The position numbers and the translations under genes are program-made. A stretch of DNA of 64,000 bases from an uncultured delta proteobacterium (GTDB taxonomy: Bacteria; Desulfobacterota; Binatia; UBA9968), in NCBI GenBank assembly GCA_963745035.1, contig CAVUVW010000010.1, positions 64,001 to 128,000 on the forward strand. Direction: 5' to 3'. A model generated the notes under the pieces. The model did no database searches and had not been told where the DNA came from. It worked only from the letters and a program-made list of their open reading frames with translations. Each line of letters opens with the position of its first letter. The first letter of the stretch is position 1. Positions 55,135 to 61,894 of the stretch are shown here, in pieces.

Positions 55135-55797
55135 TCAGTGGCCAGGACTTTCCCACACGTTCATCGCGGCGCGGCAGCAGAGCGCGTCTTGCTCGGGCCG
55201 GCTGGCGCCGGCGACGCCGATGGCGCCGACGATGGTCACGCCGTTGAGGATGGGCAAGGCGCCGCCCACGGGCATCATGCGGCCGCGGTGGGAAATCATC
55301 AGGCTGCGCAGCCAGGGTTCGCGCGCCTGGGGAGCGAGCTCCGTGGTCGCCATGTGCAGCGCCGCCGCGGTGTAGGCTTTATGGAATGCGAGCTCCGCCG
55401 AGCGCGGCTCGGCTTTGTCCATGCGCCCGACTGCGATGGGCGCGCCGGCTTCGTCCACGACCACCGCGCTCACCGCGAGTCCGACCATCTGGGCGTATTC
55501 CTGGGCCGAATGAATCATCTCCCAGGCCATGTCGAACGGGACCGGACCGACCGCCGCTTTGTTCTTGCGGAAAAAAGCGGCGTTGACTTCGATCGATCCC
55601 ACATGTTCGGCGGGAATGTCGATGTCTTTGAAGATCGCGTCCACCGGGCAAACGATCTCGCACTGCTCGCAATCGATGCAGACTTCGGGATCGATGTAGA
55701 ACTGCGGCGCGCCCGGCGTGGTGTGGATGCAGGCGACCGGACAGACTTCGACGCACGCGCCGTCGTTGGTGCACAGGCTGGTGATGATGTAGGGCAT
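55135..55797 (-). CDS. Ferredoxin (7Fe/8Fe type) fused to a GlcG/HbpS heme-binding domain
   Basis: CTNDGACVEVCP and CIDCEQCEIVCP, then AVVVDEAG..RMD..KAYTA..GGALPI..GAIGVAG..QD. Confidence 0.88.
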   Translation of the reverse strand: MPYIITSLCTNDGACVEVCPVACIHTTPGAPQFYIDPEVCIDCEQCEIVCPVDAIFKDIDIPAEHVGSIEVNAAFFRKNKAAVGPVPFDMAWEMIHSAQEYAQMVGLAVSAVVVDEAGAPIAVGRMDKAEPRSAELAFHKAYTAAALHMATTELAPQAREPWLRSLMISHRGRMMPVGGALPILNGVTIVGAIGVAGASRPEQDALCCRAAMNVWESPGH

Positions 55798-55887
55798 GGG
55801 TCCTCGCGTTGCTCGGAATCTCACATCTCAGATGTTGAGACGGCCATATGTGAAATTTGAAATTTGCAATCTGTCATGGCCGAAGGG

Positions 55888-56459
55888 CTAGCCGTCGGCC
55901 GCGAGCGGCAGGTCGGTGCGGATCGCGTTGGCGACGTACACGTCAAGCGCCGAATTGCGGCGTGACCAAGCGGCCGTCGGCGTTGAGCGTGCCTAACTTC
56001 GCCCGCACGGCAAGCTTCTCATCGCCAGGCTGCGGCGCCGCCGTGGCGCGAAAGCCCAGCTCTCTGATCCACGCGCTCAAAACGAAGGTGATGAACAAGC
56101 CGTTTTGCACCGGTACTTGGCCGCCGATCCCCGGCGACGTGCGCGGATCGTACTCGGCGCGCACGGCGCAGAGCACGGCAAAAGGCAGGCCTTCGGGATT
56201 TGCGGGGTCGTCGGTATCGAGCTTGGCGATCCCCGTCATGGCAGCGCCGAAGTACTCGGCCATGCCTTTGACGTGCTGCGCGGTAATCTCCGGCGTGTGC
56301 AGCTCGGTTCGCGTCGGGAATATATTCCCTTCGGGGGCCTTGCGGATCATCTCGGTCACCGTATTGGCGAGATCCGCGGGCGGCGTGTTGATGAAAAAAT
56401 CCCAGTAAGGATCGTCCCGGCGCGGGTTTTTCCCGAGTCCAGGGAAGTCGCAAAGCCAC
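55888..56459 (-). CDS. Mini reductive-dehalogenase-like protein: cobalamin-domain paralog without Fe-S motifs (2 frameshifts)
   Basis: GTG overlaps the upstream TAG; TAQHVKGMAEYFGAAMTGIA, WIRELGF, LGTLNADGRLVTPQFGA, then shifted VYVANAIRTDLPLAADG*. Confidence 0.7.
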
Positions 56460-57776
56460 TAGGCGTCCCGTTTGACGAAGCGGTTGGTGTTCTCCTTGAG
56501 CGGCGCATAGTAACCGACGTTTCCGGTCACGGGAGCCGCCGATTTCTTTTCGTGCGACGCGTTGCAGCCGGCGACGGTGCAGGCGTGCTCGCCCGGCTTG
56601 ACGCCGGAGTCGTAGCCCAGCCAAGTGACGCGGCTGCTGCGCACCACGCCCCAGTAGCGGTCGTCGATCCATTTGAGGAAACGCACGAGAGTCGGCCGCG
56701 CGAAGTAAGGACAGGCATGAAGCAGGGAGACCGTCATCGTGTGCCACCAAACATTGGGTTTAGTGAACGGGCAAACTGCGGCGCAGGTCAGGCAACTGCC
56801 CCAGTGCTCGTGCACGTAGGGTCTCAGCTTGTAGCAGGTGAGCCAGTTGATCTTGTATTTTTCGATGCCGTTGAACACGACCTTGTCGCCGAACGGAATG
56901 CTGTTGGTCGGGCAGGTATTGGCGCATTTGCGGCAGATCTTGCAGAAGTCATCGACGCCGATGTCCACCGGCTCGTCGGCAACGAGCGGCAGGTCGGTCA
57001 GGATCGGGTCCGGCATGTGCACGCGGGCGCCGAAATTTTTGTTGATCACTAGGCCGTTTCTGCCCAGCTCGCCGATGCCGCCGGCGACCCCCGCCGCCTG
57101 CGGCGTCACCACACCGCGCAGGGCCGTATAACCCATTTCTTTGATGTAGCCTTCGAGGGCTTTCAGCACCATCACGCCTTTCATTTGCGAAACGTGATAG
57201 GCGGCGTCGCCGACGTGATGGCGGTGCGCTTGCAGCTTGTTGTAATCCCACGCGGTGGTCGCCTGAATGATGTAGGGAAAGCGGCGCACCAGCTCTTCGG
57301 GCGAATTGCTTTGGAAGTCATCTTTGGCCGTGCCGTCCTGCACATAGCGGCCGCCGCCGGCGGCGTAGAGAAACGACGGATGCGCCTTGGCGATGCCGAC
57401 CACGTCGGCGCCCATGTAAAGAGCGACGGCTTTGATGTGGCGGGCCATCGCCGCCGGATCGTCCACCGCCATTCTCCGTGTATTGATTTTGCCGTTGCTC
57501 GACCGGTTGATGACATTGGTCAGAAAGTGTTTGCGGTCCGCGAAGTGATTCGGCGCGGAGACACGGGTCAGAGGATCTTTGGACACCGTGTTGCGATACC
57601 AGTTGAACAGCGGTTTGCCGAGCTCGCCGCGCTGGTTTTTCGGATGGGGCGACTGGTTCATGTCGACGTTGACGTGCTCGCCGACGATTTTAACGGAACG
57701 TCCCAGATAAGGCGTGGGAAATTCGGCGCTGCCGTTGGCGCGCTTGTGATGGTTCCCGGCTTTGTGCTTTGGACAT
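56459..57776 (-). CDS. Reductive dehalogenase-like cobalamin/2x[4Fe-4S] protein, no Tat signal (1-nt frameshift near 57768)
   Basis: IKAVALYMGADVVGIA, GIGELGRNGLVI..FGAR, LTDLPL..D.P.D.G...FCKICRKCANTCP, C..GSCLTCAAVCPF; GGAGGG RBS before ATG57776. Confidence 0.88.
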
Positions 57777-57871: not shown

Positions 57872-58273
57872 TTACCCTTGGTACGCCGCCAGCGCCACCT
57901 CGGCGCATTTCTGGTCCTGGTCTTCGGTGCCGCCGGACACGGCGATGGCGCCGACTACGTTACCGCCTTCGACAATCGGCAGTGCGCCACCTCCCGGCAT
58001 AATGCGGCCACTGCTCGAAACCACAAGACTCTGAAACCAGGTTTGTCCGGCGACGCCAGCCAGTTCCTTGGTGGGTTGCTGGAAGCTTGCTGCAGTGTAG
58101 GCCTTGTTGAGAGCGATTTCGACCGTGATTGGACGCGCCTTATCCATGCGTCCCAAGGCGATCATGCGGCCGCTTTGATCAACCACAGCCGCGGTCACCG
58201 CAATATCCAGTTGGGTCGCCTGGCTGTGGGCGTTGCGCACCATTTGGATCGCTTTTTCTCCGGGAATAGCCAT
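57872..58273 (-). CDS. GlcG/HbpS (Haem_degrading, PduO C-terminal-like) protein
   Basis: AAVVDQSG..RMD..A.NKAYTA..GGGALPI..GAIAVSGG..QD. Confidence 0.9.
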   Translation of the reverse strand: MAIPGEKAIQMVRNAHSQATQLDIAVTAAVVDQSGRMIALGRMDKARPITVEIALNKAYTAASFQQPTKELAGVAGQTWFQSLVVSSSGRIMPGGGALPIVEGGNVVGAIAVSGGTEDQDQKCAEVALAAYQG

Positions 58274-60314: not shown

Positions 60315-60468
60315 ATCATCCTCCTTTTTCTTTCAACTGCCCGATTGCTCGATACGCGTGGAGCGCCGCGATATACAACAATCATGATGGCTCAGCGAAG
60401 GCGGTCGATTCAAGGGTTGTGCGCCGGAGGGCTCCATTCTAATATCGGCAAACTTTGAGGGCATAACC

Positions 60469-61894
60469 ATGCATTACCGGGATTTGCGCGAATGGGTGAA
60501 AGGCGTCGATTCATTCGGCGAGCTGCGTGTCGTCGAAGGCGCCGACTGGAATCAGGAGATCGGCGCGGTGGCCGAGGTCGCGGCGCAGTCCCAGCCGCCG
60601 CCCGCGGTGCTGTTCGATAAGATCAAAGACTATCCTGCGGGCCGGCGCGTGCTCACCGGCATTCACAACCCGACCCTGAAGCGCCAGTGCCTGACCAATC
60701 ACCTGCCGCTCGATTACAGCGCGCGATCAATTCATCGATGCCTGGAAGAAGCGCCTGGACCGTCCGAAGCTGATCCCGCCGCGCGAAGTCGCCTCGGGAC
60801 CGGTGATGGAAAACGTATTCGAAGGCAAGGACATCGATCTTTTGTCCTTGCCGGCGCCACATTGGCATGAAGGCGACGGCGGGCGTTATTTGGGCTCCCT
60901 CGATATCACGATCAGCCGCGATCTCGACGAAGGCTGGATCAATCTCGGCTGCTACCGAGTCATGGTGCATGACCGCGACACTTTGGCGCTTTACATTTCG
61001 CCGGGCCATCACGGCAACATCCACCGGCAAAAATATTTCGACAAGGGGCAGCCGTTTCCAGTGGCGATCAGCTTCGGACCCGGATCCGCTGCTTTGGTTC
61101 TTCGGCCAAATGGACGTGCCGGCGGGCGAGTCGGAGTACGATTATGCCGGCGGCGTGCGTGGCGAAGCCATTCGAGATTATCGCCGGCAAGCACACCGGG
61201 CTGCCGATTCCGGCTTATTCCGGAGATCGCCATCGAAGGCGAAGTGATTCCTGGAACGAAAATTCCCGAGGGACCGTTCGGCGAATTCACCGGCTACTAC
61301 GCCGGCGGGCTGCGCGCCGAGCCGATGCTCAAAGTGAAGCGGCTGATGTACCGCAACGACCCGATCATCACCGGCGCGCCGCCGTTCAAGCCCGCGCCGG
61401 GCGCGGAGAACAATCTGATCCGCGCCGCCTACATCTGGAACTATCTCGACAAGGCTGGGGTGCCGGACGTGCGCGGCGTCGCCTATTATCAGACGCGGCT
61501 GCTGGTCGCGGTGTCGATCAAGCAGCGCTATCCCGGCCATGCGCGCCAGGCGGCGCTGATCGCTTCGCAATGCCGCGCCGCGGCGCTGCTCACGCGCTAC
61601 GTCATCGTGGTCGACGAAGACATCGACATCTGGGACAGCAACGAGCTTTTGTGGGCGCTCTGCACGCGTACGGATCCGGCGAAAGACATCGACATCCTGC
61701 GGCGCTGCTGGAGCAACCCCATCGACCCGATCATTCCGCCGAGTGAGCGCGGCTTTCAGTCGCGCGGCATCATCGACGCCTGCCGGCCCTACGAATGGAT
61801 GAATGATTTTCCGAAAGTCTCCGGCGCAAGCGCGGAGTTGAAGGCAAAGGTGGCGGAGAAGTTCGGCGCGAGTCTAGCGGGGAAGAAGAACTAG
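60469..61894 (+). CDS. UbiD-family (prFMN) decarboxylase (at least 3 frameshifts)
   Basis: YRDLREW, DGGRY, NLGCYR, EGPFGEFTGY, VVDEDID, WALCTR.DP, IIDAC. Confidence 0.88.

Follow-up and report, generated by a model that had tools for sequence, protein, structure and literature searches.

A conserved free-standing cobalamin-domain protein as the probable non-catalytic partner of a short cytoplasmic RdhA-like reductase

A small gene at 55888..56459 (-) of the window (the whole 64,000-nucleotide stretch of DNA analysed here) probably encodes a beta subunit that is not itself catalytic and belongs to a cytoplasmic RdhA-like cobalamin/[4Fe-4S] reductase. In this reading, to which we assign a probability of roughly 0.7, the gene of about 189 codons is intact, and the frameshifts that appear to break it are insertion errors. 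The gene is real and conserved. Its product has the fold of a class-III cobalamin core but none of the parts needed for catalysis, and it is encoded directly downstream of a larger RdhA-like protein with which it would form an alpha-beta heterodimer.

The small gene spans 572 nt on the minus strand, that is 189 codons, a stop codon and two extra bases. It runs from a GTG at 56459, whose G is common to the TAG of the large gene, to its own TAG at 55890-55888, and is spread over three frames. The first frame yields VALRLPWT from the GTG, the next frame a middle piece of 171 aa (55946-56458) and the third frame a tail, DVYVANAIRTDLPLAADG and a stop, which reaches 55888 and ends in ...IRTDLPLAADG. 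An earlier reading of this DNA, made from the sequence only, had noted that the ORF track shows just the middle 138 aa; indeed, only 55943-56359 (-) is found there. It had also proposed a protein of about 190 aa once two 1-nt shifts are bridged. When bases 56436 and 55947 are skipped, a stop-free product of 189 aa is obtained, identical at 185/189 positions to its closest intact homologue, P0004 (189 aa), which is continuous across all three pieces. The likeness to the upstream neighbour, until then seen by eye, exceeds chance. With the middle piece as query and the 400-aa neighbour as target, BLASTP gave 24% identity over 176 columns (E 6e-11, neighbour residues 41-212), and profile-profile alignment of the small and large proteins gave a probability of 99.9 (E 2.7e-31, 28% identity, 189 columns). 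Two further details of that reading held, namely the overlap of the GTG with the neighbour's TAG, which share one G, and the end of the chain just ahead of the Fe-S domain, where ...TDLPLAADG stops 10 residues short of the first Cys motif in the neighbour. One detail is corrected: past the first shift, the middle piece and the neighbour share one frame, a by-product of the extra base.

Both shifts are almost certainly assembly errors, judging by the sequences of close strains. Contigs of four runs (X1, X5, X8, X11) from four different metagenome studies were compared over 55600-56900; these represent other strains, 90-99% alike, and not the source reads. The first extra base lies at 56436 (-), where the coding strand reads TGG ACT CGG here versus TGG ACC GGG in close strains, and it changes the frame after codon 8 of the small gene. 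This base is absent in the bridging contigs of X5, X8 and X11, whilst the X1 contigs break at 56435/56437 and carry the shorter form on their loose ends. The second lies at 55947..55948 (-), where GGC GCT TGA is found here versus GGC GTT GAC (X5, X8) or GGC CTT GAC (X1). One base is absent, at 55947 (X5, X8) or 55948 (X1), in 3/3 covering runs, X11 being without cover at this site and at 55952-56083. A closer inspection of the window at this position reveals GGC-G-C-TT-GAC, in which the natural alleles GTT and CTT stand side by side and thereby produce a false TGA at 55943-55945. Only two indels in 55600-56900 are common to several runs, those at 56436 and 55947/8, and third codon positions make up 12 of the 18 variable sites listed in the middle frame. 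The intact frame on which the sequence-only reading depended is therefore present in relatives, both in strain contigs without the two extra bases and in P0004. Read-through of the TAG and programmed frameshifting were also considered and were ruled out, since close strains do not have the extra bases.

Single-base insertions are found throughout this assembly (G000). The 27 kb that are syntenic with genomes G013 and G015 contain three further shifts, one in the large gene and the others in two split genes, each of which has one extra base in G000. For a wider count, 165 ORFs (at least 150 codons, GC3 at least 0.70) were taken from 400 kb of G015, out of 684, the other 519 having a GC3 under 0.70; 46 of the 165 were then left out, their best G000 match being under 60% identity or under 80 aa. 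Frameshift junctions were present in 21 of the 119 conserved ORFs (139.7 kb) on four contigs of G000. There were 25 such junctions, and 24 of them consist of an extra single base in G000, a rate of about one inserted base per 5-6 kb of coding sequence. With one gene in six broken, and nearly always by insertion, the cause is an artefact rather than biology, and broken genes in G000 should not be taken as pseudogenes. The rpoB and rpoC genes of G000 (8.3 kb), checked for indels, are unbroken, so the error rate is not uniform. The contigs with systematic single-base insertions are C13, C14, C17, C27 and C10. Two loci from public MAG records, L097 and L099, likewise have the small gene in two frames, and the large gene of L099 has a shift at its end too.

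The small protein belongs to a sizeable family. At E<=1e-3, 1461 proteins match, and the best 120 of these 1461 are 187-194 aa long. Clustering at 50% identity gave 166 clusters, 31 of them at E<=1e-30, and free-standing members reach down to about 31% identity. The small protein matched no family in Pfam, Fer4 included, and in the ESM Atlas it matched only 'hypothetical protein' clusters without a Pfam family. Strong matches were found in 19/24 genomes of the window's genus (the match in G019 is in two pieces; G005 is unpublished) and in 2/2 genomes of a second genus, whilst the 11 genomes of a third genus contained none. Among species-representative genomes, a search with a 13-row alignment returned 53 loci. 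Their taxon labels are Binatia/'delta proteobacterium', Rokuibacteriota/Methylomirabilota, Acidoferrales, Udaeobacter, Chloroflexota/Dehalococcoidia, Syntrophobacter and MAGs of Gammaproteobacteria. An even draw across the phylum yielded no further small subunit; the matches listed, the one in G000 aside, lie in open frames of 277-922 aa and are therefore RdhA-like genes. Genome G331, from the same family, contains 8 RdhA-like matches, every one in an open frame of 308-485 aa with no short frame among them, and thus the partner is not found throughout the wider clade. Where the small gene occurs it is under purifying selection: the median dN/dS is 0.146 (range 0.075-0.209; 45 pairs from 10 loci), compared with 0.089 for the large gene, with dS near saturation.

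An AF2 model of the small protein, built on a 36-row alignment, reached a pLDDT of 90.6 and a pTM of 0.84. Foldseek placed NpRdhA, PceA and QueG first, followed by CblD and nitroreductases. By VIA-align, the closest structure is the vestigial N-domain of NpRdhA (residues 38-220; Z 15.9-18.2, rmsd of about 3 A over 158-164 residues), ahead of the PceA cores (Z 12.2-13.7), QueG (Z 11.6-11.9), CblD/MMADHC (Z 7.4-7.9) and MMACHC (Z 6.5-7.1). The small protein therefore has the class-III cobalamin core fold, that is the nitroreductase-like B12-binding domain of RdhA and QueG, and the supposition that it most resembles the vestigial domain of NpRdhA is borne out, with a Z of up to 18.2 that exceeds those of the PceA cores. 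A search with the single sequence of P0004 likewise gave NpRdhA residues 75-225 as its top match (E 4.7e-4). On the two domains of NpRdhA the small-family profile scored 37.2 and 44.8 bits (E 7.3e-23 on NpRdhA), versus 108.6 bits on its own large subunit.

The small protein matched TIGR02486 at 17.9 bits over 29 residues only, without reaching the cut-off of 160.35. The two [4Fe-4S] motifs were sought and are absent, as the chain ends before the neighbour's first CxxCxxC; it is, as the sequence-only reading had it, a free-standing copy of the cobalamin-domain core without the Fe-S domain. Equivalents of the catalytic Tyr and Lys(Arg) are also absent from the small family, the Tyr loop being deleted and the R552 region falling within the missing Fe-S part. 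Profile-profile alignment with the partner shows that about 22 residues of loop are deleted, that a GIGGQ turn, rich in glycine, stands in for the invariant HRHH..D..YH.SQ loop of the large subunit, and that the ELGRNG motif is altered. As regards catalysis, the term 'vestigial' fits the small protein on these sequence grounds. The family retains the motifs AGLG...GR and TDLP, which resemble those of catalytic subunits, and ligand binding by the small protein is therefore possible.

The small gene is the third of four co-directional minus-strand genes. The operon begins with an HbpS-like/DUF336 protein at 57872-58273 (-) (133 aa; PF03928, 107.6 bits), continues with the large RdhA-like catalytic subunit at 56459-57776 (-) and the small gene, and ends with a fusion of a ferredoxin and an HbpS-like/DUF336 domain at 55135-55824 (-) (229 aa; Fer4 and PF03928), the ferredoxin part of which is of the 2x[4Fe-4S] type with an FdxA-type match. 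The listed ORF of the large gene (56459-57661) gives 400 aa from its ATG, whilst homologues are 438-447 aa long; its true start is likely, from the sequence, to be the ATG at 57776 behind a GGAGGG. The conserved segment EFPTPYLGRSVKIVG.HVNVD is out of frame with that ATG, which places a third shift somewhere between about 57776 and 57735. The large protein scored 148 bits against TIGR02486 (cut-off 160.35) and matched NpRdhA residues 346-573 at E 2e-30. There is no TAT signal, and no RdhB adjoins the pair.

This gene order is conserved. Immediately upstream of the small gene, the large gene was present at 52/52 assessable loci (of 53). The ferredoxin-HbpS gene is downstream of the small gene at 48/50 assessable loci and, in another count, at 10/10 loci, and the HbpS-like gene precedes the large one at 40/47 assessable loci. 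At all 10 close loci the stop and start codons adjoin, the GTG overlapping the stop (TAGTG) in 6 and following it directly in 4. Two HbpS-like/DUF336 proteins thus bracket the pair, and both are conserved with it across MAGs of several phyla. At L093, from a Chloroflexia-labelled MAG, a second, divergently oriented RdhA-like paralogue (L093:4-936 (-)) sits just upstream of the pair, and neither the HbpS gene nor the ferredoxin-HbpS gene was found within 3 kb. P0231 (685 aa) consists of two complete RdhA-like modules fused in tandem, with Fe-S motifs in each.

In the passages of PMC7565698 on the active site of NpRdhA, Y426 and K488 act as a pair to donate the proton, and the hydroxyl of the substrate is bound by R552. 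When the large subunit was aligned to NpRdhA, the R552 equivalent was kept, an invariant Tyr was found 4-5 residues off the Y426 position, and an invariant His occupied the position of K488. With His in place of Lys, the enzyme may not be a dehalogenase, as far as the alignment indicates. About 2 kb from the operon, in a region syntenic in G013 and G015, lies a gene for a UbiD-family (prFMN-type) decarboxylase (60457-61891 (+)), split by one extra base near 60720; such a neighbour hints at aromatic-acid metabolism.

To place the small subunit among other vestigial domains, core domains were excised with the small-family HMM and a tree was built from 57 rows and 219 columns under LG+G4, with NpRdhA itself left out. 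Twenty-four rows had been dropped from 81 (16 small, 2 large, both domains of P0396, 2 catalytic domains of the NpRdhA family and 2 other catalytic domains), and the N-domains of P0402 and P0407 had been excluded earlier by a length filter. The hypothesis of a single origin was set before any tree was made, and the AU tests were run after a quick tree had been inspected. Small subunits were recovered as sister (99/95) to the partner clade together with two further catalytic sequences. In the NpRdhA family, of which P0401 matches 4RAS end to end (E 4.8e-203), the N-domains group with the catalytic domains of the same family (100/98); in a fused family of 564-617 aa (the 600-aa family), they fall with P0400 and the catalytic domain of that family (87/96). 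A single clade for every vestigial domain was rejected (lnL 66.1 lower, p-AU 0.0026), as was a clade of the small subunits with the N-domains of the 600-aa family (lnL 49.9 lower, p-AU 0.0069), whilst a clade of the small subunits with the N-domains of the NpRdhA family was 31.5 lnL units lower at p-AU 0.082. Its place beside its own partner makes the free-standing subunit most likely a parallel invention, and not a split NpRdhA. The suggestion of a split or intermediate form, taken in the sense of descent, is therefore not supported. If the invention was parallel, the closer structural likeness to the NpRdhA N-domain would be a convergence through similar losses.

For the model of the complex, the two chains that occur together at locus L005 were used, with an alignment for each. 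The heterodimer that the sequence-only reading had suggested is predicted with confidence: ipSAE was 0.89 in three runs, versus 0.00 for the best of 3 controls, and in a benchmark the 0.89 mark was attained by 58/80 solved complexes and by 2/110 mismatched pairs. The runs had at least 76% of contacts in common, with a partner pLDDT of 86 and 143-179 contacts. The predicted interface is pseudo-symmetric, formed by helices 113-128 and 196-219 and an arm (75-109) of the large subunit and by helices 66-75 and 116-139 and an arm (18-56) of the small one, the latter including the family-conserved DPYWDxFIN. At this modelled interface, the near-invariant residues of the small family show no clear enrichment (7/22, versus 42/189 overall, by hand count), and the score may lean on the solved structures of PceA dimers and NpRdhA. 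In the passages of PMC10463259 on this contact, the vestigial domain of NpRdhA mimics the monomer-monomer interface of PceA. With this account, the model and the coupling of stop and start codons taken together, the best reading is a stoichiometric alpha-beta heterodimer that has a single active site.

We propose that the subunit arose when the partner lineage's own nitroreductase-like cobalamin-binding core was duplicated, and that the copy would then have lost the Fe-S domain, the loop of about 22 residues and the catalytic loop. Translation of the small gene would be coupled to that of the large gene, as the stop codon and the GTG adjoin or overlap. According to the model, the two long core helices of the small subunit and its N-terminal arm (DPYWDxFIN...) would pack on their counterparts in the large subunit, giving a pseudo-two-fold alpha-beta heterodimer. 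The small subunit would thereby replace the second protomer of the PceA homodimer, or the fused vestigial domain of the monomeric NpRdhA, and would itself carry no cofactor, so that each heterodimer would contain one cobalamin and two clusters. Electrons would come from the neighbouring ferredoxin-DUF336 fusion, the likely donor.

Other explanations must be weighed against this. A genuine pseudogene, in which the frameshifts are real and the duplicate or the whole operon is decaying in this strain, might be suspected from three shifts within 1.9 kb of the operon whilst rpoB and rpoC are intact, and the compared contigs come from other strains, so that decay specific to this one is conceivable. 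However, shifts by one extra base also affect the 21/119 conserved ORFs on four contigs, near-identical strains are all intact, the copy is stop-free and 185/189 identical to an intact homologue once two bases are set aside, and the second site holds both natural alleles. Real frameshifts with absent or decaying homologues were the outcome that the sequence-only reading had named as fatal to it; homologues are instead abundant and intact and the shifts are assembly-wide, and we regard decay as very improbable. Descent poses a different question, for the small subunit could be the NpRdhA vestigial domain itself, either split off a fused ancestor or being the unfused precursor from which the fused form arose. 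That domain does top the structural matches, above any catalytic core, the single-sequence search reaches NpRdhA 75-225 first, and a clade with the NpRdhA-family N-domains was not rejected by the AU test (p-AU 0.082, lnL 31.5 lower). Yet the tree has each kind of vestigial domain by its own catalytic partner (99/95 for the small subunits, 100/98 for the NpRdhA family), the two broader groupings are rejected (p 0.0026 and 0.0069), the small profile scores far higher on its own large subunit than on either NpRdhA domain (108.6 versus 37.2/44.8 bits), and the order is reversed, the small gene being downstream where the NpRdhA domain is N-terminal. Common descent with the NpRdhA domain is accordingly unlikely.

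The main rival to the heterodimer concerns function. The small protein could be a B12 escort or chaperone that transiently binds corrinoid or the apo large subunit and hands over or inserts the cofactor, much as in MMADHC-MMACHC. Behind RdhA and QueG, the next structural matches are CblD/MMADHC (Z 7.4-7.9) and MMACHC (Z 6.5-7.1). Motifs resembling those of catalytic subunits (AGLG..GR and TDLP) are kept, the pair is flanked by two DUF336 proteins, and MMADHC has an MMACHC-like fold and forms a heterodimer (PMC4705923). These Z-scores nevertheless fall within the 'common arrangement' range of VIA-align, and the Fe-S and C-terminal parts that form the pocket are missing. Moreover, the stop/start overlap suggests 1:1 production, and the large predicted interface (143-179 contacts, through the canonical dimer helices) looks permanent in the model. 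A chaperone-like role is in our judgement improbable, and a heterodimer with one active site remains the best reading.

Reductive dehalogenases are difficult to express; those that are cytosolic and tolerate oxygen serve as the tractable models and are candidates for bioremediation and for PFAS work. If a widespread soil clade needs a separate dummy subunit, the large gene alone would fail in expression trials, and gene surveys limited to rdhA would misread the architecture of the enzyme. The arrangement would also offer a natural test of the cobalamin core's need for a partner, met by a homodimer, a fused copy or a separate copy. A full-text search of the openly accessible literature returned no paper that describes a vestigial subunit as a separate protein, or such an operon. 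If the vestigial partner was invented at least three times (two fused at the N-terminus and one free-standing), a lone RdhA core would need a partner and many short cytosolic RdhA-like proteins would be obligate alpha-beta heterodimers; this generalisation is tentative, and we hold it to be rather doubtful. Were it true, the small gene would be required for solubility and activity of those enzymes in another host, and surveys that score them as single-subunit would be wrong. In a bolder version of this generalisation, the small subunit would still bind corrinoid and serve as a built-in cofactor reserve or hand-over site.

Lastly, we compared the pair with known systems. The closest is the N-domain of NpRdhA (PDB 4RAS, 6ZXU, 6ZY0), which has the same fold and has neither catalytic residues nor an Fe-S domain. 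Its proposed place, in the passages of PMC10463259 concerned, is the dimer-partner position of the catalytic core, and the small subunit is predicted to sit likewise. In contrast, the small subunit is not fused N-terminally but is a polypeptide in its own right, with its gene downstream of the catalytic one at every assessable locus, the tree favours an independent duplication, and it keeps AGLG..GR and TDLP, which are lost in the NpRdhA N-domain, and has its own arm, DPYWDxFIN. The fused relatives of 564-617 aa (P0194, P0394-P0398) also join a degenerate N-terminal copy of the core to a catalytic RdhA-like part, and the small profile scores 72.8-83.4 bits on their N-domain; unlike the small subunit, this domain is fused and groups with its own catalytic domain and P0400. 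The PceA homodimer of Sulfurospirillum multivorans, together with other respiratory RdhA (PDB 4UQU, 8Q4H), shares the core fold (Z 12.2-13.7), and the contact predicted here runs through the core helices, as expected for a core dimer. However, the partners here are unequal, with just one of them catalytic, and there is neither a TAT signal nor an adjoining RdhB. The human MMACHC-MMADHC pair (CblC-CblD; PDB 5CV0, 9MRS; PMC4705923) similarly combines a B12-processing nitroreductase-like protein with a degenerate paralogue, but its sequence relation is far more distant and it serves trafficking rather than an Fe-S reductase, so the likeness is an analogy only. By description, the large subunit resembles the 'simplified cytosolic' RdhA-like proteins of Desulfobacterota and Chloroflexota, which are about 395 aa long and are presented without a vestigial domain in the passages of a 2025 survey (PMC12219181) that describe them. 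It too is short, cytosolic and free of a fused vestigial domain; here, however, the next gene supplies that domain.
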